This document shows positions 5,755 to 21,860 of a stretch of DNA of 35,952 nt, piece after piece. The translations under genes and the position numbers were made by a program. This stretch comes from Malassezia furfur (lineage: Eukaryota): assembly GCA_052055015.1 (NCBI GenBank), contig JBQJIT010000069.1. One strand, given 5' to 3'. Under the pieces are notes generated by a model. That model saw only the letters and a list, made by a program, of their open reading frames with translations, had not been told where the DNA came from and did no database searches. The number at the start of each line of letters is the position of its first letter. The first letter of the stretch is position 1.

Positions 5755-7495
5755 CTATGCCTGTCTGTAGCGCAGCGCCCGCTGGACCGCCTGTCGCGTC
5801 GCACTGAACGCCGCTTCCACACACGCCTGGCCCACGCCTGGCTGCGCCGCTTCGGCGTCTTCGGCGATGCGCTGCATGCGCACCGGTGCGCGATCGAGCA
5901 CGTCGAGCATTTGCCGCGCCTTGGCCGCGCGTTGCGCCAACGTCTGGGGGGCACTGGCCACGTCACCCGAGGGCGACATTGCCTGCCAAAACTGCTGCAA
6001 AAACTCGTTGGTGGCCGCATGGCATGCGAGCAGCTGCTTGGCAATGTCGGGCGGCAGTTCCTGGATCGCGCTGCCAGGGTGCAACTCTTTCTGCTGCTCC
6101 ATGTTGTCGAGCATTGCGTCGAGCGCCGTGCGCATCGTCGGGCCGGTCGGCTCAAAGTGACGCAAGTCCAGCGTCCACTGCCCGAGCTCGGAGTGGAAGT
6201 GGGCCATGGCCGCATGCACGTCGGGTTGCTGGGTATCTTGTGAGCGCTCCGCATCCTGGCCCGCGTCAAAATAGGCGCGCTGGTTGTGGATCTCGAGTCT
6301 GCGCCCGCTGTGCGTGCGATGCTCGTTCAAGTCGTCCACGACGATCCGGTCGTAGTACGGCACGCCAGCGTGGTCTGTCGGGTACTCTTCGTCGACACCA
6401 CCCGTCTTGCGCCGCACACGCCGTGCATCCTGCTCGGACAATTCGCCGAGCGACGAGCGGAGCAGGCTGCTCGCGTGATTGTTGAAGCGCCGGACCAGCG
6501 GCAGGTTGCGCCGGTCAAAGCCCGCGCGCATGGTCCAGTCCTGTGTATTTCCGGTCTCGCCATGGTCCTCAGCCGTGGACGCAAGGTTGAGCAGCGCATC
6601 GTGAGGGTTGTACGCCGTGCGTGGCTCCAAGCCTGGGTCAGCGACTCGACCTACCGTCGTCTTCCTCCTCCAAGTACTGATCGAAAATGGGGTCGTCGCG
6701 CAGCGTCTGCTCCGATGCGGCCGAGCGCTGCGAGGTACGCAGGCGGTGGTATAGCTTGGACTGAAAGTAGCGCGACCAAAATGCGCCCTCGCTCAGCTTT
6801 TCGGGGACGTTTTCGTTGTAGGCTCGGGTCAGCACCGGGTATTGTTCAAACAGCTCGCGAATGAGCTGCGGAGTGATGTTGATTTTCATCTCGCCCGACT
6901 CACCCTGCGTCGGCCGCGGATCGGCAAGCTGCGCACGGCGGCCCTGACGCTGCTGCATCTTGGCCCGCTCCGAGCGCAGCAGCGCAACGCGCGTGGGGTG
7001 TGTCCAGAAGTCGGCGTCGGAAATCATTCCAGAGCCGACCACTTCCTTATGTAGCGCAAGCAGGCTAGGGTTCGCCAGCAAGACCTGGCCACGCAGGCGC
7101 ACCTCGGATGAAGCATCGGCGCCCGCCGTTGCGCTCGGCGTGTCGCGGCTGCCTTCGGATTGCGTACGTGCGCGAGCAATGGCCGCAGCTAGTCGCTCCT
7201 TAAACTGCTCGCGTGCAGCGACTGCGACGTCCTGCTCTGCATTAAAGGTGAGCATCGCCGCATTTTCGCCGTTGATGGTGTGTCCCTGCTCGGCCTCGAG
7301 TCGAAGCGCGGTTTGGGCCGCGCCAGGTTTGGACACCTTGAGGCCCTTGAGGTGGACGTCGCGCACTTGAAATGCACCAACCGTCGCATTGGCGCTAGAT
7401 GGCTGCCATTTTAAAAGCCCATCAACGCCCAGCACCAGCGTGCCGGGCACTTTCTTGTACGACACGGCGGCGTACAGCGCCGGCGTGTCGGTCAT
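5755..7495 (-). CDS. TFB1: TFIIH p62/Tfb1 subunit (copy A)
   Basis: N-terminal PH-like domain (YKKVPGTL), BSD-type segments (ISDADFW; LFEQYP..AYNENVPEKLSEGAFWSRYFQS), RRFNNHAS. One 22-nt intron at 6633-6654. Confidence 0.88.
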
Positions 7496-7581
7496 CCTGG
7501 TGGTGTGGAGGCCACGTGGCTAGGGTCCCAGGGCGAACATGCTGCTGCAGCCCGGGGCGGGGCCCTTACCTTCCCGCCAAC

Positions 7582-7896
7582 ATGGTGAACATTTCTTTGG
7601 ACCCCGAGACGCGCAACGCGATCATTCCCCAACTCCAGCAGATCGTTGACCACGTTAAGTCTGGTGGCGTGCCTGCCTACGAGAAGGAAGTCAGCCGCCT
7701 GCAGGCTGCCCACGACAAGTTCCACGAGAAGGGTAACACGCCAGGCTCGTTCGAGGACGACCAGCTCTACAAGATCTTCACCCAAATCAACCAGCACGGC
7801 AAAGTGAAGGACAGCGTCGGCACGGTGCAGCACCGCGACGAGCTCCTGAATGCCCTCGAGACCGAGCTGAACCGTCTGCAGGAGCAGCAGCAGTAA
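7582..7896 (+). CDS. Small 104-aa protein, partial paralog of the Cdc37 N-terminal helical region (copy A)
   Basis: Good start context (gccaacATGg), strongly C/G-ending codons, conserved as a 103-aa ORF in the mirror arm. Aligns without gaps to the neighbouring Cdc37 (34/94 identities by hand). Confidence 0.85.
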   Translation: MVNISLDPETRNAIIPQLQQIVDHVKSGGVPAYEKEVSRLQAAHDKFHEKGNTPGSFEDDQLYKIFTQINQHGKVKDSVGTVQHRDELLNALETELNRLQEQQQ

Positions 7897-8118
7897 GCGG
7901 TGTGTGCCTCGAACCGAGCGCCTCGCTACGTAAAATTGTCCGGTAGAGTCCACAGTCTCGTTTGCGAGTTCTGCTCATCCTTTCGCGCCCGGCCACGGGG
8001 CAGTGCCACAGGACCCTTTTGTGGGGGGCTGTTCGGACCCGACCGAAGCTTCGCGCACCAACGTGGCCCGGGCGCATGTACGCCACGTGAGAAGTGGAGG
8101 CGGGTTTCATTGACCACC

Positions 8119-9652
8119 ATGGGGAAGCTCAACTACGCCAAGTGGGACAATCTCGAGTTGTCAGACGATTCGGACATCGAGGTGCATCCGAACGTTGATA
8201 AAAAGTCATTTGTGCGATGGAAGCAACGTGATATTCACGAGAAGCGCGAAATGCGCAAGATTGAGCGATCGCGTCTCGAGGCGGAAGGCCGCACGAACAC
8301 GGACCTGATGCCGGAGCTCGACCGACTGGTACAAGACACGCGCAAAGAAGGTGTACCGTTCTACGAGCGCGAAATGAAACGGTTGCTTGCTGGGCGTGCT
8401 GAGCGTGGCAACAAGGATGGTCCGGATGGCCCTACGCTCGACGACATGCTTCTTTCGCTTCTGCTGCAGATCAACCAAGAAGACGCCGTGAAGTCGAGCG
8501 CTGGTAAGGCGGACCAGGCAGATACGCTGGTCGCCTCACTGGAGAGTCACAAGAAGCGGCTGAAGGAGCGCCAGGATACCATCGAAGCCGAGCTTCGCAC
8601 CATGGACGAAGAAGACCAGCGCAAGATCACCAGCGATTCGCTTCGCGAAGGATGGAGCGGCGGCGTACGTTTGTTTACTGACCCAGCACGTCACCAAGCC
8701 CGATGCGCCGGTGGAAAACCCTAGTAAGAAAAAGCAGACGACCACCACCAAGACGCAACACATCGAGACACTGAACCCCGGCGCGGCGCAGGTCTCGGCG
8801 CCGGCGGCGCCGGCGGCGGCCGACTCGGACGACGAAGAGGCACCGACGGTGACGCCCGTGATGAAGGCGTTTGCGAGCCTGCCCACCGCGCTCAAGAATG
8901 TGCCGCTGTCGGCCACCGGTTTCCCCGAAGGCTTCAACCCTGCAAAAGAGCTCCAACTCGCGCCCTTCGAAGAGGCCTTCCGCTACCTCGGGCAGCACAA
9001 AGAGCTTCTGCATGCGTCGTACGGCACGGCCGATGCGCTGTTGATGCAGGCATTTGAGTCGCAGATGGCTGGCCAAAAAGCGCTCGCGCGGATGTGCACC
9101 GAGAAAGCGCTGCTGGTCCAGTACTGCAACAAGCTGGGTCCTGACGGCGTGAGCCTCTTTTTCAAGCGGTACGTGTGCCTTGCTGACCCTAGGATGATGT
9201 CACCCGACGGCCGTGCAGCCTTTGTATTTCTGAACGACGTGCTTTCGACGTACGCGCGCATTGCGCAACGGGCCGAGGCGCTGGCAACGCAGTACAAAGA
9301 GGGCAGCGAAGGCGCCGAGCAGATCCAGCTCATGGCCGAGGACCCCAGTACGGTGATTTCGTTCGATGTGCCGGACGGCCCGCCGCCGGAGAACATTACG
9401 ATTGAGGGCGAAGGTGCCGAGTCTATGGATGTGAACCAGGTCAAGGCGTGGCTGCAGCGCCGGTGGGAGATTTACCAGAGCTTTGACCCCGACTTCCGTG
9501 CGGCGCTCGAGACCAAGCAGCTTGCGCGCGTCAATGAGGTCCTGGGCGAGATGCCTGTGGAGAAGGCTGAGCGTGTCGTCCAAGAGCTGGACGAAGCGGG
9601 CATCCTCAACTTTAGCTCCACCGAGGTCCGCGACGAGACGGGCCGTACGTAG
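8119..9652 (+). CDS. CDC37: Hsp90 kinase co-chaperone Cdc37 (copy A)
   Basis: Signature N-terminus LNYAKWDNLELSDDSDIEVHPNVDKKSFVRWKQ and C-terminal VNEVLGEMPVEKAE. Introns 8665-8686 and 9169-9192. Confidence 0.95.
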
Positions 9653-9736: not shown

Positions 9737-10496
9737 ATGTCGGCGGGTGGGCAGGATGACTCGGCGGCGTCGTTCATCGGCGCGCTGATCTCGCTGACCT
9801 CGCGTTCGAACATGCGGTACCAGGGGATCCTGTCCAACATTGACGCGGCCCAAGCGACGCTTGCGCTCGAAAAGGGTACGTACTTGCGCTGCTAACGCCA
9901 GTGCGCTCGTGGGGTACCGAAGGCCGCTGTACCGCCGCTGGGCAGCCGCAGGACGAGGTGCCTGGTAGCGAGAAGGTGTACGACTATATCGTGTTCCGAG
10001 CTGCGGATGTCGTGGATCTGCGCATCGACGATCCGTCCCCAGCACAGCCCGAGACGCCTGCCGCGGAGCCGAGTCCCGCGGCGGTGCCGGCCGCACCCTC
10101 GGTACGTATTGGCCCATGGTGTTTGAGAGGACGAACGCATACGGATGTAAAGTGGATTTCGATCTACGCTGTCCGAGAGCGCTTTTTTCATGTGGATAGT
10201 TCCGCTGCCTTCCTACTGATCTCACCTGCGGCACCCAAGAGCACGTACTGACCGCAGCCGCTTGTCACCCCCGCTCCGACGGCGAGTATGCCACACGAGC
10301 ACGGCGTGCCGTCGCCGATGCCGTATGCCAACATGTATGCGAGCCCGCACATGTACGGCATGCCGCCGCAGGGCTATGGATACAACCCATATGTGCAGAG
10401 TCCGTACAGCGGCATGCCGCCGATGCCGCCGCACGGTGTGCCGTTTGGTGCGCCGCCGCCGCACATGCATGCGTATGCATCGCCCGTCCCGCCGCC
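9737..10496 (+). pseudogene. SCD6: Scd6/Lsm14 5' fragment truncated at the inversion centre (copy A)
   Basis: Lsm14 N-domain FIGALISLTSRSNMRYQGILSNID...VRSWGTEGR...VYDYIVFRAADVVDL, followed by a Pro/Tyr/Met-rich linker. Introns 9876-9901 and 10102-10257. No DFDF/FFD/TFG region. The frame runs into antisense sequence to a stop at 10767. Confidence 0.85.
10118..10226 (+). ncRNA. Intronic box C/D snoRNA, snR52/SNORD83-like (18S Am420 guide), copy A
   Basis: Lies in a 156-nt intron. Guide gctgccttcct (10204-10214) is complementary to 18S AGGAAGGCAGC and is followed by a-CTGA box D (10216-10219). Terminal ggtg/cacc stem. Nearly invariant between arms. Box C is degenerate. Confidence 0.72.
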
Positions 10497-11224
10497 GGCG
10501 GCGCACCGTACGGTACGCCGTGTGGCGGCATCGGCGGCATACCACTATACGGGCTCTGCATGTACGGGTTGTATCCGTAGCCCTGCGGCGGCATCCCGTA
10601 CATGTGCGGGCTCGCATACATGTTTGCATACGGCATCGGCGACGGCACACCGTGCTCATGTGGGGTGCTCGCCAGCGGAGCGGGCGTGGCAAGCGGCTGC
10701 GGTCAGTATGTGCCCTAGCGAGCCTCAAGGTGCGATCAGTAGGAAGGCAGCGGAACTATCCACATGAAAAAAGCGCTCTCGGACAGCGTAGATCGAAATC
10801 CACTTTACATCCGTATGCTTTCGTCCTCTCAAACACCATGGGCCGATACGTACCGAAGGAGCAGCCGGCGCCGTCGCGGGGCTCGGCGCCGCGGCGGCCG
10901 CGGGCGTCTCTGGCTGTGCCGGCGACGGGTCATCGATGCGCAAGTCCACGACGTCCGCAGCACGGAACACAATATAGTCGTACACCTTCTCGCTGCCCGG
11001 CACCTCGTCTTGCGGCTGTCCGGCAGCGGCGCAGCGGCCTTCGGTGCCAAACGAGCGCACTGGCGTCAGCGCATCGGACACGTACCCTTTTCGAGCGCGA
11101 GCGTCGCTTGCGCCGCGTCGATGTTCGACAAGACACCCTGGTACCGCATGTTCGAGCGCGAGGTCAGCGAGATCAGCGCGCCGATGAACGACGCGGCCGA
11201 GTCTTCCTGCCCACCCGCCGACAT
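10497..11224 (-). pseudogene. SCD6: Scd6/Lsm14 5' fragment truncated at the inversion centre (copy B)
   Basis: ATG at 11224 (MSAGGQEDSAASFIGALISL...). Long intron 10697-10853. Ends at GVPYGAPP, then reads antisense of copy A to a stop at 10265. Confidence 0.85.
10729..10837 (-). ncRNA. Intronic box C/D snoRNA, snR52-like, copy B
   Basis: Reverse-complement homolog of 10118-10226 with identical guide and box D. Confidence 0.72.
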
Positions 11225-11318
11225 CTTCGGTAGCGATGGCACCGCGCAAGAAGACACGGACAAAAAAATCACGTGAATATACGCGGGGCGGCGCCGTGCC
11301 AGAGCTGGCTACGTACGG

Positions 11319-12861
11319 CTATGCACGGCCCGTCTCGTCGCGGACCTCGGTGGAGCTAAAGTTGAGGATCCCCGCCTCATCCAGTTCCTGGACAACGCGC
11401 TCGGCTTTCGCGACCGGCATCTCACCCAACACCTCGTTGACGCGCTCGAGTTTCTTGGTCTCGAGCGCGGCACGGAAGTCGGGGTCAAAGCTCTGGTAAA
11501 TGTCCCACCGGCGCTGCAGCCACGCCTTGACCTGGTTCACGTCCATAGACTCGGCACCCTCGCCCTCGATCTTGATGTTCTCAGGCGGCGGTCCATCCGG
11601 TACATCGAACGAAATCACGGTGTTGGGGTCCTCGGCCATGAGCTGGATCTGCTCCGCACCCTCGCCGCCGTCTTTGTATTGCGCCGCCAGCGCCTCGGCA
11701 CGCTGCGCAATGCGCGCGTACGTCGACAGCACATCGTTCAAAAAGACAAACGCAGCACGTCCATCGGGTGACATCATGCTGGGGTCAGCGAAATCCACGT
11801 ACCGCTTGAAAAAGAGGCTCACACCATCGGGGCCGAGTTTGTTGCAGTACTGCACCAGCAGCGCTTTTTCGGTGCACATGCGCGCCAGCGCTTTTTGGCC
11901 CGCCATCTGCGACTCAAACGCCTGCATAAGCAGCGCATCCGCCGTGCCATACGATGCGTGCAGCAGCTCCTTGTGTTGCCCAAGGTAGTGGAACGCCTCT
12001 TGGAAAGGCTCAAGCTTCAGTTCTTTAGCAGGATTGAAGCCCTCGGGGAAACCGGTGGTCGACAGCGGCACGTTCTTGAGTGCCGTCGGAAGACTAGCAA
12101 ATGCCTTCATGACCGGCGTAACCGTCGGCGCGTCTTCATCATCCGACTCCGTCGCCGCCGACGCCTCAGGCGCCGCTGCAGGCGCCGCCTGCACCGCACC
12201 AGGGTTCAGAGTCTCGATGTGCTGCGTCTTGGTGGTCGTAGTCTGCTTCTTTTTCCCTGGGTTCTCGATGGGCGCATCAGGCGTGGAGACATGCTGTGTG
12301 AGTAGGAAAACGTACCCCGCCGCTCCATCCCTCACGAAGCGAATCGCTGGTGATCTTGCGCTGGTCCTCTTCGTCCATCGCGCGTAGCTCGGCTTCAATA
12401 GTAGCCTGGCGCCCCTTTAGCCGCTTCTTGTGGCTTTCCAGTGATGCCACGAGCATTTCTGTCTGGTCAGATTTGCCGACACTCGACTTCACTGCATCTT
12501 CCTGATTGATTTGGAGCAGCAGCGAAAGAAGCATGTCGTCCAGCGTCGGACCGTCTGGACCATCCTTGTTCCCACGCTCTGCACGTCCAGCTAGCAGACG
12601 CTTCACTTCACGCTCATAGAAGGGTACGCCATCCTTGCGCGTGTCCTGCATGAGCCGGTCGAGTTCCGGCATCAAGTCCGTGTTCGTGCGTCCTTCTGCC
12701 TCGAGACGCGAGCGCTCGATCTTGCGCATCTCGCGCTTTTCGTGAATATCGCGCTGCTTCCATCGTACAAACGACTTTTTGTCGACATTGGGATGCACCT
12801 CGATGTCAGAGTCGTCCGACAGCTCAAGGTTGTCCCACTTGGCGTAGTTGAGCTTCCCCAT
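11319..12861 (-). CDS. CDC37: Cdc37 (copy B)
   Basis: Same signature and the same two intron positions as copy A. Intact. Confidence 0.95.
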
Positions 12862-13083
12862 GGTGGTCTATGACACCCGCCTCCACTTTCCACGTGGCGA
12901 ACAGGCGCCCGGGCCACGTACGTGCGCGAAGGTTCGGGCCTGGCCCGATGCACCCCATACAGTCGCGACACGGGCCCGCCTGGACCGCATGCCGGGAATA
13001 GCGCGAGCAAGGCTCACAGGCCAGATGCAAGGACTTTACAGCACAGTCTATTCAGTATGTAGTACCATCACGGTACTAGTTAT

Positions 13084-13395
13084 TTACTGCTGCTCCTGAA
13101 GGCGGTTAAGCTCAGTCTCGAGCGCCTTGAGGAGCTCGTCGCGGTGCTGCGCAGTACCAATGCTCTCCTTGACTTTGCCGTGCTGGTTGATTTGGGTCAG
13201 GATCTTGTAGAGCTGGTCGTCCTCGAACGAGCCCGCCGAGTCACCCTTGTCGTGGTACTTGTCGTGCGCGGCCTGGAGACGGCTGACCTCCTTCTCGTAC
13301 GCAGGTACACCGCCCGACTTGACATGATCAATGATCTGCTGGAGCTGGGGGATGATCGCGCTGCGCGTCTCGGGGTCCAAATCGATGTTCACCAT
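13084..13395 (-). CDS. Small 103-aa Cdc37-N partial paralog (copy B)
   Basis: MVNIDLDPETRSAIIPQLQQIIDHVKSGGVPAYEKEVSRL..., intact, with mostly conservative changes versus copy A. Confidence 0.85.
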   Translation of the reverse strand: MVNIDLDPETRSAIIPQLQQIIDHVKSGGVPAYEKEVSRLQAAHDKYHDKGDSAGSFEDDQLYKILTQINQHGKVKESIGTAQHRDELLKALETELNRLQEQQ

Positions 13396-13483
13396 GTTGG
13401 CGGGAAGGTAGGCTGCCCGACTCCACGCTGCTGCTGCATTCGCCGCACTGTGGCGCTACGCACGTGGCCTCCACACCACCAGG

Positions 13484-15221
13484 ATGACCGACGCGCCGGC
13501 GCTGTACGCCGCCGTGTCGTACAAGAAGGTGCCGGGCACGCTCGTGCTGGGCGCCGACGGCGTCTTGAAATGGCAGCCGTCGAGCACCAATGCGACCGTT
13601 GGTGCATTTCAGGTGCGCGATATCCACCTGAAAGGCCTCAAGGTGTCCAAGCCTGGTGCGGCGCAAACGGCGCTTCGGCTCGAGGCCGAGCAGGGGCACC
13701 CCATCAATGGCGAAAATGCAGCGATGCTAACGTTCAATGCCGAGCAGGATGTCGCCGTGGCATCGCGCGAGCAGTTCAAAGACCGACTCGCCGCGGCCAT
13801 TGCCCGCGCGCGTACACAGACAGAAACCACGCGTGAAACGCCGAGCACGACGCCGGGAGCCGACGCATCCGAGGTGCGCCTGCGTGGTCAGGTGCTGCTG
13901 GCGAACCCCAGCCTGCTTGCCCTGCACAAAGAGGTGGTGGGCTCGGGTACCATTTCTGATGCCGACTTCTGGGCGCACCCCACCCGTGTTGCGCTGCTGC
14001 GGTCCGAGCGCGCCAAGATGCAGCAGCGCCAAGGACGGCGCGCGCAGCTGGCTGACCCGCGGCCGACCCAGGGCGAGTCGGGCGAGATGAAAATCAACAT
14101 CACTCCGCAGCTTATCCGCGAGCTGTTTGAACAATACCCCGTGCTGACCCGTACCTACAACGAAAACGTCCCTGAAAAGCTGAGTGAGAGCGCGTTTTGG
14201 TCGCGCTACTTTCAGTCAAAGTTATACCACCGGCTGCGCACGTCGCAGCGATCCGCGGCATCGGAGCAGACGCTGCGCGACGACCCGATTTTTGACCAGT
14301 ACTTGGAGGAGGAAGACGACGGTAGGTCGTGCCGCTGACCCAGGCTTGGAGCCACGCACGGCGTACAACCCCCACGACGCGCTGCTGAACCTCGAGTCTA
14401 CGGCCGAGGACCACGGCGAGACGGGCAATACACAGGACTGGACGATGCGGGCGGGCTATGACCGGCGCAACCTGCCGCTTGTCCGGCGCTTCAACAACCA
14501 CGCTAGCAGCCTGCTGCGCTCGTCGCTCGGCGAGCTGTCCGAGCAGGACGCACGGCGCGTGCGGCGCAAGACGGGCGGTGTCGACGAAGAGTACCCCACG
14601 GACGACGCAGGGGTGCCGTACTACGACCGCATCGTTGTGGACGATCTGAACGAGCATCAAACGCACAGCGGACGCCGGCTCGAGATCCACAACCAGCGCG
14701 CGTACTTTGATGCGGGCCTGGATGCGCAGCGTGCACAAGATACCCAGCAGCCGGACGTGCATGCGGCGATGGCAAAGTTCCACACCGAGCTTGGGCAGTG
14801 GACGCTGGATCTGCGCAACTTTGAGCCGACAGGCGCAACCATGCGGACGGCCCTGGACGCGATGCTGGACAACATGGAGCAGCAAAAGGAGCTGCACCCT
14901 GGCAACGCGATCCAGGAGCTGCCGCCGGACATTGCCAAGCAGCTGCTCGCGTGCCACGCGGCCACCGACGAGTTTCTGCAGCAGTTCTGGCAGGCGATCT
15001 CGCCGTCGGGCGACATGGCCAGCGCGCCACAGACACTGGCACAGCGTGCGGCCAAGGCGCGGCAAATGCTCGAGGTGCTTAGGCGCGCGCCCGTGCGTAT
15101 GCAGCGCATCGCGGAGGACGCCGAGGCGGCGCAGCCCGGCGTGGGCCATGCCTGTGTCGAGGCGGCGTTTAGTGCAACGCGGCAGGCCGTAGAGCGTGCG
15201 CTGCGCTACGGACAGGCCTAG
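13484..15221 (+). CDS. TFB1: TFIIH p62/Tfb1 (copy B)
   Basis: Homolog of 5755-7495, with a 22-nt intron at 14322-14343. Confidence 0.88.
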
Positions 15222-15231
15222 GTAGAGCACA

Positions 15232-17526
15232 CTACGAACGCGTCGAGCGCATCGCCTCTTCGAGCTGGCGCTTGTTCGACTCGACGATCACGCGCTTGTA
15301 CTCGGAGACGCTGCCGCGGAACTTGTACACGGTGCCGTTCTCGCACACCCACATCTCCTTGAGGCAGCTGTTGATGAAGCGCTCGTCGTGGCTGATCACG
15401 ATCACGCCGCCGTTCCAGCGGTTGATGGCATCGATCAGCGCATCAAGACCCTCAATGTCCAAGTGGTTCGTCGGCTCGTCGAGCAGCAGCACGTGCGGCT
15501 TCATCAGGCTCAGCTGCGCAAAGGCCACGCGGCTCTTTTGACCACCACTGAGCGTCGCAATCTTTTGCAGACCGGTGGTGCCCGTAATGCCGAACGAGCC
15601 GAGGTGCTGGCGGTACTCTTGCTCGGTGCGCCCGGGGAAGCGCGACGCAAGGAACGCCACGGCGTTCATCGTCAAGTCGAGCTGGTCGATGTGGTGCTGC
15701 GAGAAGTAGCCAATGCGCAGGCGCGAGTTGCGCTTCGCATCGCCCTCAAGCGGCGTGATCTGGTTCATGAGCAGCTTCATCAGTGTCGACTTGCCCGCGC
15801 CGTTGCTGCCGACGAGCGCGATGCGGCTGTCCATCGTGACGTCAAAGTTGACGTGGCGCAGCAGAATGCGGTCGCGCGAGTACCCAAACGTGACATTGTC
15901 CAGCTGCAGCAGGGGCGGGCTCAGCTTGTCCGTCTCTGGCAGCGTAAAGTGCTCGCCCGACTCCTTCTCGGGCGGCTCGAGCTCGGGGAGACGCTCGAGC
16001 TCCTTGATGCGGCTCTGCGCCTGCGTCGCGCGGTTCGCATTGTAGCGCCAGCGGTCGATGAACGCCTGGAGGTGCTGCCGCTTCGCCATGTTCGCCTCGT
16101 ACTCGCGCAGCTGGTTGCGGCGGCGCTCACCACGCGTCTCGTAGAACTGGTCAAAGTCGCCCTTGTAGTAGTCGAGGCGCTCCGAGTGCATGTGCACAAT
16201 GTCCGTCGCGACCTGGTTCAGGAACGCACGGTCGTGCGACACGACGAGCAGCGTGCCCTTCCACTCGTTCACAAGGTAGTCTTCGAGCCACGCAATCGCG
16301 TTCAGGTCAAGCATGTTGGACGGCTCATCCAGCATGAGCAGGTCCGGCTTGCAGAACAGCGCACGCGCCAGCGCAAGACGCATGCGCCAGCCACCGCTGA
16401 AGTGCTTCGTGGGCTTCTGCTGGTCGCTCCCAACAATGCCCAGACCGTTGAGCAGCGCCGCAGCACGGCTCGGACCCGTGTCGGCCTCCATCTCGACCAG
16501 CTTGGCCTGGATGTCGCCCAGCCGCGCCGACAGCTCGTCGCGCTCGTGCTCGCGCTGGCGCGTCGGCAGGTCGACGGCCGAGCCACGCGACAGGCCGTCC
16601 TGGCTCGACTCCTGCGCCGCCGCCGAGGCGGCCTGCGCAGCGTCCTCGAGCGCCTGAAGCTGCTCGTTGATGCGCGCCTCCTCCTGGAGCAAGCGCTCGC
16701 GCCAGACGTCGGCCTTGAGCACGGCCTGGACGGCAGGCGTGTCGTCGCCGACAATCTCCTGTTCGACGTACAGCAGCGAGACGTTGGTGGGAATCGGCAC
16801 GTCGCGCATCGCCATGTGCCGCAGCAGCGTACTTTTGCCCACACCGTTGCGGCCAATCAGACCGTAGCGACGACCGTACGCCATGGTGAGCTCGGCGTTG
16901 CTCAGGATGCGGTTGCTGCCGAAGCTCACGTCGATGTTCGGCAGGTGGATGTCCTTGTTCTTGCCCTTGGCCGCACCGGAGCTGATCGACTCGAGCGGGT
17001 TGACCTGCAGGTACATTTCCTCGTAGTTGGCCATCTTCTTGGCGTTTTCCACGAGCCGGCTCGACTGGTACAGATCGCGCTGCTCGCGCTTGGCGAGCTT
17101 GGCACGCGTCTTGGCCTCCTGGCGCTCGAGGCGCTTCACGTCGACCGTCGTGCCCTTGCGGTCGCTGCGGCCGAGCGCAAGGTCAAACGAGCCGGCGCCG
17201 GCGTCGTAGCGCGACGTCGAGCTCAGCGCACCCTCGCGCATGTCAATCACCTTGTCGAGACGCGTAAGTTTCTGGTGCTGCGCATCGTGCAAGGGCTGCC
17301 GCTCCGCGACGAGCGCACCGAGCTTCTCGAGCAGACCCGGAAGCGCCTCGCGCGCCTTGGACGTCGCTGGTTCACTCAGCACCGCAGACTCGAGCATGGG
17401 GCGCACAACCTCGTCCATTACCGACACCGACGGATCCTCGCCGGCATCCTCCACGGCATGGTCCAGATACTCTACAATCGGGTCGTCCAGCGAGGGAAAC
17501 GCCGCACGCACCAGCGCCGCGGCCAT
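15232..17526 (-). CDS. GCN20: Gcn20/ABCF3 (copy B), 764 aa
   Basis: About 99% protein identity to copy A, with a 3-aa C-terminal extension (TRS). Confidence 0.9.
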   Translation of the reverse strand: MAAALVRAAFPSLDDPIVEYLDHAVEDAGEDPSVSVMDEVVRPMLESAVLSEPATSKAREALPGLLEKLGALVAERQPLHDAQHQKLTRLDKVIDMREGALSSTSRYDAGAGSFDLALGRSDRKGTTVDVKRLERQEAKTRAKLAKREQRDLYQSSRLVENAKKMANYEEMYLQVNPLESISSGAAKGKNKDIHLPNIDVSFGSNRILSNAELTMAYGRRYGLIGRNGVGKSTLLRHMAMRDVPIPTNVSLLYVEQEIVGDDTPAVQAVLKADVWRERLLQEEARINEQLQALEDAAQAASAAAQESSQDGLSRGSAVDLPTRQREHERDELSARLGDIQAKLVEMEADTGPSRAAALLNGLGIVGSDQQKPTKHFSGGWRMRLALARALFCKPDLLMLDEPSNMLDLNAIAWLEDYLVNEWKGTLLVVSHDRAFLNQVATDIVHMHSERLDYYKGDFDQFYETRGERRRNQLREYEANMAKRQHLQAFIDRWRYNANRATQAQSRIKELERLPELEPPEKESGEHFTLPETDKLSPPLLQLDNVTFGYSRDRILLRHVNFDVTMDSRIALVGSNGAGKSTLMKLLMNQITPLEGDAKRNSRLRIGYFSQHHIDQLDLTMNAVAFLASRFPGRTEQEYRQHLGSFGITGTTGLQKIATLSGGQKSRVAFAQLSLMKPHVLLLDEPTNHLDIEGLDALIDAINRWNGGVIVISHDERFINSCLKEMWVCENGTVYKFRGSVSEYKRVIVESNKRQLEEAMRSTRS

Positions 17527-17556
17527 CGTAAAAAGAAGCCACGGCGTCGCATATGC

Positions 17557-19389
17557 TTAGTCAGCGCCCAGGCGCCGCAGATGGCGCGCTAGGCCCGGCA
17601 CAGACGCGCCGTCCACGCACTGGAGGCCCGCGCGTGTGCGCAGCAGGGCCTGGGCGACACGCGCCACCGCGGGGTCTACATCGTCGGGCACGTCCGCAGT
17701 CGCGTCACTGTGCCGCGGGTACTGCGCTCCGCACCGCAGCGGGCCGACGCTCAGCTCCGTGTACGCCTCCCACACGGCACATACAGCGCGCGGCGCGGGC
17801 ACATGCGCCTCGGGGTGCACGAGCGCCTCGGGGTGCAAAAAGAGCAGGTAGAGCGCATCGTAGCCGCCCGCTAAGGGTAAGTAAAGCCTCGCTCGCACAC
17901 GCACCTCCAGGGACACCGCCGCCCAGGACGCCGGGTGCGTCGCGGATCGTCGTGTCGATCAGGCGCGTCATTTCCATCGGCTCGACGGGCGCCGAGGCGC
18001 GTGTGCCCAGCTCGCGCATGCCCGCACGCACGGACCGCATCGAGTTGCGCACGTCGATAAACATGTCCGCCGTTAGCGACGGGTGCTCCTTCCGGTACGC
18101 GTCCCACTCGACCGACGAGCGCTGCGCAAACGCCTCGAGTACGTGCGCGTACTCTTCCGGGTCGCGCGCATGCGCAACGTGCAGGCCCAGCAGGCCATCG
18201 GCCAGCGACTGGTTCGCGGCGCCAAGCACGCGGAACAGCTGGGCGGCTGCGTTAGACATCGACATACCCCACTCGGGCTTGGTTTTTTGGAACGCGCTCA
18301 CCTGCCCCACCATGGTGCGCGTGTTGGAGCCCGCATCCACGTCCGCAAGGCACAGCCGCACGCCGGGCGGCAGCTGCAGCGGTGCGGGGCGCGCGACGTG
18401 TGCGTCGGCGTCGGCAGTGCGCGTGAGCTCCAGCAGCCCCTCGGCAGCGGTCGGCACACCACTCGCCCCCTGCGGCGCCGGCTGCCAGTGCGGGTTATGG
18501 GGGTCGAGCAGCGGGAGCAGGGGGACCGGCATGCGTGCGTCGTGCGCCGCCGTCTCGCCGGCGCGCAGCAGGCGGTAGCCGACCTCATCGCGCATCGCGT
18601 CCTTGATCAGTTTGGGATGGAAGCGGCGGTACAGCTGGCTGCCCCACACAGACGCCGACACGTCGAAGCCCGAGCCGAGCTTGCCCTGCGCGGCACAGTG
18701 CGCGAGCTGCGCCGTGTTGTGGATCAGACCGAGTGACGCAAGTGGCAGGGTGTGGTCCTCGCGCTCGCCGTCGACGATGCCAAGGTGCAGCAGCATGCCG
18801 CCCGTGAGCGACGTGGTCATCGCGGCGCTCGACCCGAGCCCCGTCTTGTGCACGTCGCCGAGCGTGCAGTGCTGCTCGGCGAACGGTTCGAGCGCGTCGA
18901 GCTGTGCAAGCGTCGGCGCTTGGCCCTGGGTGAGTGTGGGCAACGCACCTCGACACGGTGCGAGTAGTAGTCGTTGTCGCCCGCAATCACCACGTCGATG
19001 CCGCCACCCAGCGCATCGCGCAGCGCCGACACGCCGCGCTTCTCGATGCCGAGCTGCAGCGTATACAAGAGGGCAAAGGCCACAAAGGGATTCGCGCCGT
19101 TTGCGTCACTGCGTGAGTGCGTCACGTACGTCTGCACCAAGCGCACGTCCTCGGTGCGCGTCGCATCGTCGCCCGCGGGCAGCTGCACCGCGTACACCCA
19201 CTCGGCCGCGTCAAACTGCGGCGAGCGCACGCGGATCGCCGGCACGCTGTCGGGCTGTGCGGCGCGCGTCGCTACGCTCGTGTAAAAGCGTGCATCGGTC
19301 GCAAACACCACGCCAAAGTACGCGGGGTCGAGCACGAGGTAGCCGCCCGCAGCGAGCACCTTGCCCGGCGCCGACACGGTCGTGGTCAT
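17557..19389 (-). CDS. ERG8: Phosphomevalonate kinase (copy B)
   Basis: Same motifs and four intron positions as copy A. First intron at 19109-19129. Confidence 0.93.
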
Positions 19390-19432
19390 CGCGGCGTGCG
19401 TCGCTGAGTCAGCGACCTTCGTTTTCTCGACG

Positions 19433-20317
19433 ATGGCAGCGAGCGGTGCGGCGGACGCCGACGTGCAGACGGCCATCTACAAGAAGCTATACCCCGTCGA
19501 TTTCCTGCGCAGGCACCTTGAGGAGCAGGTCCGCGAGGATGGGCGCGCCCTCGACGAGTTTCGGCCCGTGTCGCTTGCGACGGGCATCCTGACGCAGGCC
19601 AACGGCAGTGCGCTCGTCCGCTTCGGCACGGGCACCATGGTCACCGCCGCGGTCCAGGCGCACATCGCCGAGCCGCACCACGACCGCCCGCACGAGGGCT
19701 TCGTCGTGCCAAGCATCGACCTCTCCCCGCTGTGCTCGCCGCAGTACCGCGCGGGGCCACCGGGCGACGAGGCGCAGGCGCTCGCACACTACCTCCAGCG
19801 CTTCCTGGACGAGTCGCGCGCGCTCCCGCGCGAGTCGCTGTGCATTGAGCCGGGAGTCGCGGTGTGGTGCGTGTACGTGGACCTCGTCGTGGTCAGCGAG
19901 GACGGCAACGTGCTCGATGCCGCGGCGCTCGCGGCCGTCGCCGCGCTCGCCGACGCACGGCTGCCGCGCGTGCTGCGCTGCGACGACGCGTCGGCGTGCG
20001 TGTGCACACGCGAGCGCACGGAAAAGCTCGCACTCGCGTACCTGCCCATGCTTGCAACGTTCGGGCTCGTGGATGCCACCTACCTGCTCGCCGACGTCAC
20101 CGCGTTCGAGGGCTCGCTCACCGCCGCGGCGACGCACATCGGCGTCGCAGACGCCGACGACGCCGACGCCGACGTCTTCTTCGTGCGGCACGCGGGCAAC
20201 GCGCTCGCTGCGCGCCCGCAGCTGCACAACCACGCGCTGCTCGAGCGCTGCATCGACGCGGCGCAGGCACGCGCGCGCGTGCTGCGCAAGCTGCTGCACG
20301 AATCGCTGAAGCAGTGA
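19433..20317 (+). CDS. RRP43: Rrp43/EXOSC8 (copy B)
   Basis: Intact homolog of 673-1557, same length. Confidence 0.85.
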   Translation: MAASGAADADVQTAIYKKLYPVDFLRRHLEEQVREDGRALDEFRPVSLATGILTQANGSALVRFGTGTMVTAAVQAHIAEPHHDRPHEGFVVPSIDLSPLCSPQYRAGPPGDEAQALAHYLQRFLDESRALPRESLCIEPGVAVWCVYVDLVVVSEDGNVLDAAALAAVAALADARLPRVLRCDDASACVCTRERTEKLALAYLPMLATFGLVDATYLLADVTAFEGSLTAAATHIGVADADDADADVFFVRHAGNALAARPQLHNHALLERCIDAAQARARVLRKLLHESLKQ

Positions 20318-20323
20318 TGATAC

Positions 20324-21860
20324 CTAACTATGCTCATACCCCGTAAACGCCCGCGCACGCTCTGCGTGTTAGTGACGTGCGCACCGCACAGCTGGAAGAC
20401 GCGCAGCCCGCTCTTGTTGCTCTTGAGCGCCATCGTGTACTTGCGCACCGTGTGTAGCAGGTCGTAACGCCGCGGTCCCGTCGTGGTCAAGAGCTGCGTC
20501 AGGCAGCACAACGCACCTGAGCGAGAATCGGCAGGCCCTGCTGTGTGAGCGCCACATCCACCAACAGTGGGCGCGCCCCGGCCCCATGCGCCGGCGCCGC
20601 AGGTGCACACAGCCGCTCGGCGAGCGCCATGCCCACAGACGTGTCGCTCACGCGCAGGATGACCTGCACGGCTTTGGCACCATACGGCGATAGGCACACG
20701 GTAGCGACATGACGCAGCAGCAGCTCCGCGACGCGGTCCTGCACGTCGCGGCTGCCGTGCTCGGCGAGGTGCTGGATCACCCACACCCCGTACTGGTCAC
20801 ACACACACTCGACAAAGTGCGTCAACAGCTCCGCGACGCATGCGCTCGACGCACCCACGAGGCCGCTGCGCAGCAGGTCCTGCACCAGCACACTGCCCAC
20901 TTCGTCCGTCGCGACCGCCAGCCACCGGCCCTGGAGGTGTGCTTGGACCGTGGCAGCGATGTGGGCACGCACCTCGGCATCCCACGGCAGCGTCCAGATC
21001 GTCTGCCACACGGGCGCCGCACTGGGGCGCAGCAGCGTCTGGGCCAGAGGCGTCTGCAGCAGCTCGTGCAGCACAGCGTAGCGCACGTCCGTGGCCACCT
21101 CGAGCACGCGCTGCACGACAAGCGCGCCATGGGCGGACAGCGCCAGGATCGCGAACGAGCCCTGCAGACGCCAGGCCAGGCTTGGCTCCCGGCCCAGTGC
21201 GCGGTGCACCACGAACCGGCCGTACGCGTCCGAGGCGAGAGGGATAAGCCGCCGCCGCACCGCCGGCACCACGTCCGGTGCGCGTGTGTCGTCCTTGAGG
21301 CAGTGCTGCAGCGCGATGCACGACGCTCCGTCATGTTGCACCAATACCTGGCGCACGAGCTCGGATGCGTCGACGACATCACGCGGCGGCATCGCCTCGG
21401 GCGGCGGATCGGGGACGCGGATGGCGCGCGCCCAGTCGATGCGCGACGGCGCACCGAACAGCGCACACTGCTCCTCAAACGACGTCCCAATCGTCGTCAT
21501 CTGGCGGTTCTGCAGCACTTTTTCGGGAAACGCATGCACCCCATATGGATGCATGCTGGGTGGAGCGTCGTCCCAAAACGGATTGAACTCGTCGGGCGTC
21601 TCGGCCCCGGAGCGCGGCGGCACGAGCACGCGCGGCACCGCACCGGCCGCTGCATCCTCCTCCAAACTCGCGATGCGTCGCTCCAGCGCAGTGAGACGGC
21701 GCTCCAGGCCCCCGGTACACGCCGACGCCCCTGGCCACGCGCGCGACTGGCTACTAGTGCTCGGCCATGTCGTTGGCGTCGACTCGGTCGCATAGCCACC
21801 GGGCGTCGCCTGCACGTCGAACCGGGGTGAGGGGCTCGGACTGGTGCCCGGGTCCGACAT
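20324..21860 (-). CDS. Pumilio/PUF-repeat-like protein, complete copy
   Basis: Disordered N-terminus with a short coiled coil (LERRLTALERRIASLEED), then about 8 PUF-like repeats (LASDAYGRFVVHRAL, LALSAHGALVVQRVLE, etc.). Two short 3' introns as in copy A. Confidence 0.7.

Follow-up and report, generated by a model that had tools for sequence, protein, structure and literature searches.

Cdc37L1/Harc, a full-length vertebrate paralogue of the kinase co-chaperone Cdc37, keeps the Hsp90-binding middle and C-terminal domains. MicroProteins, such as ID and LITTLE ZIPPER, are small truncated paralogues that bind the parent protein or its partners through a retained interaction domain. In yeast, an N-terminal fragment of Cdc37 was reportedly found by Lee and colleagues in 2002 to be sufficient for viability. 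We know of no function assigned to the distal tip of the Cdc37 N-domain, and to our knowledge, this domain has not been described as a dimerization surface. Here, we describe a small gene in Malassezia furfur, a common skin commensal and occasional pathogen whose Hsp90-dependent signaling is of interest. The gene is a 104-amino-acid (aa) open reading frame (ORF) that adjoins CDC37 and is called mini-Cdc37, or the mini, below. It lies in a 35,952-nucleotide (nt) stretch of M. furfur DNA (contig JBQJIT010000069.1 of assembly GCA_052055015.1), the window to which all coordinates refer, and is present in both arms (arm 1 and arm 2) of an inverted repeat. We consider it quite likely that the mini is a genuine, strongly transcribed, lineage-restricted gene that arose from a piece of CDC37 exon 1 and that its product serves as a free binding module.

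Results

Homology of the mini to Cdc37

BLASTP aligned mini residues 10 to 103 with Cdc37 residues 59 to 152, encoded by CDC37 exon 1 (8119-8664), without gaps, with 34 of 94 residues identical and 49 of 94 positive (E = 7e-15). The identical count had been obtained by hand in a first-pass annotation of the window, which was made from the letters alone. A MAFFT alignment made the whole mini (residues 1 to 104) collinear with Cdc37 residues ∼50 to 153. In a Smith-Waterman shuffle test, the score of 157 was reached by 0 of 2,000 shuffles (mean, 32.8; standard deviation, 5.0; maximum, 64; z = 25), the outcome was the same when the Cdc37 segment was shuffled instead of the mini, and the mini/Cdc37 pairs of M. 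psittaci and M. yamatoensis gave z values of 18 to 23. The proposed similarity is therefore significant.

A hidden Markov model (HMM) of four minis gave 121 domain rows at E ≤ 10 when run against 120 Cdc37 proteins, and among the best 60 of these rows, the main match in each of 58 proteins was the homologous N-domain segment. The top scores belonged to the Cdc37s of M. furfur (56.0 bits) and M. psittaci (46.7 bits), P0022 (46.0 bits), and the Cdc37 of M. yamatoensis (44.7 bits), while most Ustilaginales Cdc37s scored about 30 to 34 bits. A Pfam search of the mini returned no CDC37_N, CDC37_M, or CDC37_C match at E ≤ 1; CDC37 exon 1 matched CDC37_N with 130.9 bits (E = 7e-38), and full-length Cdc37 relatives carry PF08565 and PF08564. 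The mini sequence contains neither SDD, the motif with the CK2 serine, nor HPN, and its alignment begins at about Cdc37 residue 50, which agrees with the earlier description of a protein without the extreme N terminus and the middle domain of Cdc37. Weak Pfam matches to YwqH-like, CART, and Rad50 hook families fell below the cut-off and covered the last helix only, and we rejected them as coiled-coil noise; the YwqH-like match had an E value of 6e-4 and scored 20.5 bits where 33.7 were required.

Distribution, synteny, and origin

Among 1.84 billion representative proteins (50%-identity level), phmmer found one match to the mini at E ≤ 0.001, a 102-aa M. psittaci protein with 60% identity. Word-indexed searches with the mini and with a six-mini profile identified three 90%-identity clusters in all among 5.8 billion clusters, with 15 member sequences; two clusters are from M. 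furfur, and one is common to M. psittaci and M. yamatoensis. The mini is intact in both arms and in the records of M. furfur (CBS9595 and CBS14141), M. psittaci, and M. yamatoensis. In all three species, the annotated mini is the immediate neighbor of CDC37, and the GenBank accessions of the mini and Cdc37 are consecutive, on the same contig, in each (KAI3628954/55, WFD44507/08, and WFD00442/43). Every record labels it a "hypothetical protein," and two records stem from ab initio Augustus predictions, according to PMC9040865. Full-text literature searches turned up no statement that relates these hypothetical proteins to Cdc37, and the main text of bioRxiv 10.1101/2025.06.24.660996 makes no mention of the mini gene.

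In a maximum-likelihood tree of the homologous segment (43 rows, 104 columns), the minis grouped together (100/100), with a stem length of 3.4 changes per site. This clade fell within the Ustilaginomycotina Cdc37 clade (97/93), and its place inside was an open polytomy. We considered gene conversion between the mini and CDC37 and rejected it. The M. psittaci mini scored 42.0 bits with its own Cdc37 versus 47.4 bits with that of M. furfur, and the M. yamatoensis mini scored 43.1 versus 50.1 bits. Neither is closer to the Cdc37 of its own species, which argues for a single origin of the minis without gene conversion.

The ancestral state of the site was visible in metagenomes. A contig scan with a CDC37 alignment yielded 80 CDC37 loci, two of which (L001 and L002) resemble Malassezia and are 65% identical in exon 1; exon 1 of L002 is 89.6% identical to M. 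caprae Cdc37. Both loci retain the order TFB1(-), CDC37(+), SCD6(+). From TFB1 residue 6 to the CDC37 start, there are 285 nt in L001, 118 nt in L002, and 623 nt in the window; the TFB1-CDC37 gap itself measures about 270 and 105 bp in L001 and L002, and tblastn of the minis on these two regions gave no match. Since L001 and L002 are empty there, the mini is an insertion into the old divergent promoter region between TFB1 and CDC37. A second, separate copy of the Cdc37 segment was absent from all 80 metagenomic loci; a double match in L056, a candidate for a partial CDC37 duplicate, proved to be two exons of one gene.

These results support the view that the mini is a lineage-restricted partial tandem duplicate of part of CDC37 exon 1, and the insertion occurred no later than in the ancestor shared by the M. 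furfur complex and M. yamatoensis/M. psittaci. The first-pass annotation had proposed an old partial tandem duplicate kept under selection. Duplication and selection stand, as does synteny, with the mini beside CDC37 in three species and missing from the L001/L002 site. The word "old" needs a qualifier: the duplicate is older than the divergence between the M. furfur complex and M. yamatoensis/M. psittaci but was not found elsewhere among the 1.84 billion representatives.

Coding constraint, start, and flanking regions

The two arms differ at 42 nucleotides of the mini, with 7, 4, and 31 differences at codon positions 1, 2, and 3, respectively. The ratio of nonsynonymous to synonymous substitution rates (dN/dS) is 0.095 at a dS of 0.63, and five neighboring coding segments compared likewise gave ratios of 0.017 to 0.076. 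The intactness in both arms, already remarked on in the earlier reading, is conservation between two diverged lineages, and the ratio between the two copies points to purifying selection. All mini orthologues have an MV(N/K) start in common, and the stop position varies by no more than 1 to 2 codons among the four lineages; arm 1 alone has a further in-frame ATG upstream (7399). The GC content at third codon positions (GC3) is 0.84 for the mini and 0.69 for CDC37 exon 1. Codon bias, which had been offered as a mark of a gene, lends moderate support only, as the high GC3 speaks for the mini yet three other long ORFs of the window, of unchecked gene status, have similar values (0.83 to 0.85). 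The start contexts of the mini (CCAACATGGTGAA, 7571-7589) and CDC37 (CCACCATGGGGAA, 8108-8126) match at 11 of 13 positions. Such a match would be expected if the duplication took in the CDC37 start and codons ∼4 to 49 were lost afterward, and a shared Kozak-like consensus could also produce it.

The spacer between the mini and CDC37 (within 7894-8118 in arm 1 and 12862-13086 in arm 2) is exactly 222 nt long in both arms. Its first ∼140 nt, where gapless identity between the arms is at chance level, cannot be aligned without gaps and is presumably the 3′ untranslated region or terminator of the mini; its last ∼82 nt before the CDC37 start is 75 to 90% identical. In each arm, the mini is in frame with CDC37. 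Just one stop, a TAA, separates the two ORFs in arm 1, and there are three further in-frame stops within the spacer of arm 2.

The hexamer CACGTG is under-represented in the window (13 copies versus 23.7 expected). Arm 1 has only three copies (7513, 8084, and 9688), which lie 28 to 63 nt upstream of the mini, CDC37, and SCD6 starts, and all three are kept in arm 2 (13461, 12891, and 11270). The first (7513-7518) is within the 86 bp upstream of the mini, whose start context is the same in both arms, and the second (8084-8089) is within the conserved CDC37-proximal part of the spacer. L001 and L002 have one CACGTG each in the 400 nt that precede the CDC37 start and include the TFB1-CDC37 spacer. 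CACGTG is likely a basic helix-loop-helix-type promoter element that is present twice where the mini was inserted.

Expression

The mini of M. furfur CBS14141 is represented by protein P0009, which bears the name GLX27_004001. For this strain, Dataset S3 of PMC10410736 gives DESeq2-normalized counts per gene, and we used a part of that table. In samples WT_I, WT_II, and WT_III, respectively, the counts were 8,422, 6,621, and 7,686 for the mini, 634, 459, and 468 for GLX27_004000, and 2,057, 1,946, and 1,382 for GLX27_004002. The mini counts are thus ∼4 to 5 times those of GLX27_004002 and ∼15 times those of GLX27_004000, one of which is CDC37. Within the examined part of the dataset, 14 of 187 rows exceeded the mini in WT_I. 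Because the counts carry no length normalization and the mini coding sequence (CDS) is only 312 nt, about one-fifth of the CDC37 CDS length, most of the mini RNA cannot belong to a CDC37 or TFB1 transcript. In these rows, the mini is strongly transcribed at a level of its own. Transcription, on which the first-pass annotation had made its proposal depend, is evident, and with counts several times those of either neighbor, the mini is not mainly an upstream exon of CDC37. Homology, selection, synteny, and expression show that the mini is a real protein gene.

Predicted fold and residue retention

We modeled Cdc37 residues 1 to 182 and the mini with AlphaFold2. The Cdc37 model (59-row alignment; predicted local distance difference test [pLDDT], 79.9) has helices at residues 28 to 77, 79 to 96, 107 to 119, 122 to 126, and 133 to 168. 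The first and last of these form a long hairpin, and its far end bears the other three. In ten-residue blocks over residues 41 to 160, the mean pLDDT is 88 to 96, but it is 78 to 80 in the loop at residues 91 to 110. The mini model (60-row alignment; pLDDT, 86.6; predicted template modeling score, 0.77) has helices at residues 8 to 48, 57 to 70, 73 to 77, and 84 to 103, in the same order of elements as the Cdc37 segment, and corresponds to the far end of the hairpin alone. The predicted mini is thus a bundle of four helices that matches the distal tip of the N-domain of Cdc37; this tip is an elaboration of the N-domain. The solved human Cdc37 chains match fungal Cdc37 by sequence over residues 4 to 74 only, and for this reason, the copied part of Cdc37 has no solved counterpart by sequence. 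The mini proteins are acidic (pI 5.3 to 5.5), hydrophilic, and 11.6 to 11.9 kDa in mass, and inspection by eye showed no hydrophobic N terminus in the mini.

Structure searches were uninformative. Foldseek of the Cdc37 model against the PDB gave no match at E ≤ 0.001, with human 5fwk_E third at an E value of 0.5. Leads from VIA-align for the mini model (Cmr5, eIF2B, and similar helical bundles) were discarded, as the best Z score of 7.0 is below a meaningful level for helical bundles. The best hit of an ESM Atlas search was an unnamed bacterial cluster (feature score, 0.77). A complex prediction for full-length Cdc37 (P0019) with the mini gave no answer (score, 0.00, without controls), which speaks neither for nor against binding.

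The distal tip is very strongly conserved among basidiomycete Cdc37s, and 39 columns of the segment are conserved at ≥80% in 33 Ustilaginomycotina Cdc37s. Twelve of the 13 hydrophobic conserved columns stay hydrophobic in all four minis, and all four preserve only 6 of the 26 polar, Gly, or Pro columns. Fifty-seven columns do not vary from mini to mini, and 36 of them are unlike the Cdc37 majority. They do not have the Cdc37 tip signature RGNKDGPxGPT..DD..LSLLLQI, and their loop reads [FY]H[ED]KG[ND]xxGS[FW]. One tip helix is retained, with KEVSRL in the minis and REVSRL in Cdc37. The mini-specific invariant motifs include GGVPAYEKEVSRLQA and QHRDEL, which, judging from this pattern, may be surface motifs of the mini's own.

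Locus layout and the inverted repeat

Coordinates of the features are collected in Table 1. The gene order in arm 1 is TFB1-like (-), mini (+), CDC37 (+), and SCD6/LSM14-like. The arm 1 mini differs at 1 residue from M. furfur protein CBS9595_000026. The arm 2 mini equals P0010 exactly and differs at 2 of 103 residues from the CBS14141 protein GLX27_004001. A tblastn search with the CBS9595 Cdc37 protein gave zero mismatches on arm 1.

Table 1. Features of the mini-Cdc37 locus in the 35,952-nt window
Feature	Position	Strand	Description
mini-Cdc37 CDS, arm 1	7582..7896	+	ATG 7582, TAA 7894-7896; 104 aa
mini-Cdc37 CDS, arm 2	13084..13395	-	103 aa plus stop; intact
Region upstream of the mini (86 bp)	7496..7581	.	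Between the divergent TFB1-like start (7495, -) and the mini start
Spacer 3′ of the mini stop	7897..8036	+	Unconstrained; gapless arm-arm identity 2-9/20 per block
CDC37-proximal region	8037..8118	+	Conserved; 15-18/20 identical per block between arms
CDC37, arm 1	8119..9652	+	Exon 1 = 8119-8664; short intron from 8665
Parental segment in CDC37 exon 1	8266..8577	+	Codons 50-153; collinear with the entire mini protein
TFB1/TFIIH p62-like gene, first exon	6638..7495	-	Named by reading the translated sequence, without a family search
SCD6/LSM14-like gene	starts 9737		Arm 1, 3′ of CDC37; named by reading the translated sequence
CDC37, arm 2	11319..12861	-	

The first intron of CDC37 (8665-8698) has two candidate acceptors. 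The CBS9595 Cdc37 model restarts at 8699 (34-nt intron) and omits HVTK; the M. brasiliensis model restarts at 8687 (22-nt intron) and restores GHV(S/T)K, a consensus motif among other Malassezia Cdc37s. Four residues are probably missing from the CBS9595 model.

Positions 1 to 20989 of the window form an inverted repeat whose arms are each 10.5 kb or longer; it reaches the left edge and may extend further. The arms (1 to ∼10477 and ∼10477 to 20989) are 84 to 92% complementary in gapless blocks, and the center (∼10462 to 10492) lies inside a Pro/Met/Tyr-rich part of the SCD6/LSM14-like gene, both copies of which lose their 3′ part. The arms carry P1-like and P2-like alleles of every gene checked. 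In PMC9040865, the overall similarity of the P1 (CBS9595) and P2 (CBS14141) lineages is put at 89%, and the arm identities fit this value. Two possible explanations for the repeat are a true head-to-head rearrangement, in a genome that combines both lineages, and an assembly join at a low-complexity stretch. An ENA contig of 567 nt encodes a 104-aa mini variant (P0005) with its first ∼75 residues like arm 2 (P2-like) and the rest like arm 1 (P1-like). Either the allele is recombinant, or the contig is a chimera of short reads from a sample with both lineages.

Discussion

The sequence comparisons lead us to the following account. A stretch of CDC37 exon 1 coding for residues ∼50 to 153 was duplicated in tandem in the ancestor from which the M. 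furfur complex and M. yamatoensis/M. psittaci descend, landing between TFB1 and CDC37. The copy then passed through a burst of divergence, to 36% identity with its parent, before coming under purifying selection. Its product is predicted to be an acidic helical bundle of 11.8 kDa that matches the distal tip of the Cdc37 N-domain hairpin, and we infer that it most likely acts as a free and abundant binding module, with a partner that is either new or partly retained, and not as a kinase co-chaperone. We favor a binding module over a co-chaperone because the tip core and the EVSRL helix are kept, the kinase- and Hsp90-related parts and the signature loop are gone, and motifs of the mini's own are fixed.

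A decoy of the microProtein type is the nearest competitor to this proposal. A free tip would compete with Cdc37 for whatever binds the fungal-specific tip or would dock on Cdc37 or Hsp90, and, with its greater abundance than Cdc37, it would thereby tune kinase chaperoning. The mini is a single-domain fragment beside its multidomain parent, it keeps the best-conserved tip helix (KEVSRL versus REVSRL), and its read count in the consulted rows of Dataset S3, at ∼4 to 5 and ∼15 times those of the two flanking genes, one of them CDC37, suits a competitor. However, the four minis jointly keep only 6 of the 26 conserved polar, Gly, or Pro tip columns, another loop stands in place of RGNKDGPxGPT, and the long stem of the mini clade indicates that constraints changed after the duplication; nor do we know of a partner for the tip or of a role for the N-domain in Cdc37 dimerization. 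The pattern of retained and lost residues speaks for a repurposed helical bundle and against a simple decoy of the Cdc37 tip, so a repurposed binding module appears the more likely of the two, and we regard the decoy as unlikely. The narrower proposition that the mini, through its EVSRL helix, binds a natural partner of the Cdc37 tip and titrates it away from Cdc37 seems to us rather improbable.

Two other explanations would deny the mini a function of its own as a protein gene. The ORF might belong to the CDC37 transcript, whether as an upstream exon, as a read-through extension, or as a regulatory upstream ORF, which the common frame, the 222-nt distance, and the single TAA of arm 1 would allow; in addition, a GTAAGC overlaps the mini stop codon in that arm. 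Against this, the arm 2 spacer adds three in-frame stops, the spacer is unconstrained over its first ∼140 nt and conserved in a promoter-like manner, with a CACGTG of its own, over the last ∼82 nt, and the stop holds its place within 1 to 2 codons in four lineages. The low dN/dS indicates that the peptide sequence itself matters, and in the rows of Dataset S3 that we used, mini reads outnumber those of either neighbor 4- to 15-fold despite a CDS ∼5 times shorter than that of CDC37. We consider a dependent exon or upstream ORF highly improbable. We give even less credence to the idea that the mini is a decaying relic or an annotation artifact. Its lack of a Pfam family, its "hypothetical protein" labels, and the ab initio origin that PMC9040865 indicates for two records would suit that idea, but the ORF is intact in both arms and in three species with 57 invariant columns, the 7/4/31 pattern at a dS of 0.63 shows selection, and the counts in the same rows of Dataset S3 show that the gene is highly expressed.

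Several points weigh against our preferred reading of a lineage-restricted gene for a repurposed binding module. The expression evidence is an RNA count table for the CBS14141 allele and not reads mapped to the window, and transcript ends and minority read-through into CDC37 cannot be judged from per-gene counts. The fold shared by the two models is partly so by construction, as 55 of the 60 rows in the mini alignment are Cdc37s. Both families have retained the EVSRL helix, a part of the tip surface, and the mini could to this extent compete with Cdc37. Given the polytomy in the tree, the dating rests on synteny and distribution, with L001 and L002 as the loci at which the empty site was read at the DNA level. 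The protein searches yielded no mini named for M. brasiliensis, although this species is reported to be closer to the M. furfur P1 lineage than P1 is to P2 (PMC10410736).

The locus offers a clean, datable case of the birth of a new gene from an internal piece of an essential co-chaperone, in which one can see the ancestral site without the gene, the insertion, the burst of divergence, and the constraint that followed. A free, highly expressed mini would also be an experimental handle on the Cdc37 tip that leaves the essential CDC37 gene untouched. If the mini did titrate a tip partner, there would be a dosage-type control of kinase chaperoning in these skin yeasts that is known in no other organism, and it would give a handle for finding what the Cdc37 tip does.

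Among known systems, the yeast N-terminal fragment resembles the mini in that an isolated fungal Cdc37 N-domain can reportedly act alone; that fragment is reported to include the kinase-binding extreme N terminus, whereas the mini starts at residue 50. Cdc37L1/Harc is likewise a Cdc37 paralogue that lost part of the parental function, but the mini is its reverse, a 104-aa piece of the N-domain only. With microProteins, the mini shares small size, a single domain, and descent from a larger multidomain protein without the effector parts; microProteins are defined by binding, however, and in the mini, most conserved surface positions have changed. The Cdc37 N-domain itself (Pfam CDC37_N, PF03234; human 2NCA and 5FWK) is also among the close systems. 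The mini differs from it in having neither residues 1 to 49, with the CK2 serine and HPN, nor the RGNKDGPxGPT loop and in giving no CDC37_N match, and it resembles it in its homology to fungal residues ∼50 to 153 and in the same predicted order of helices.

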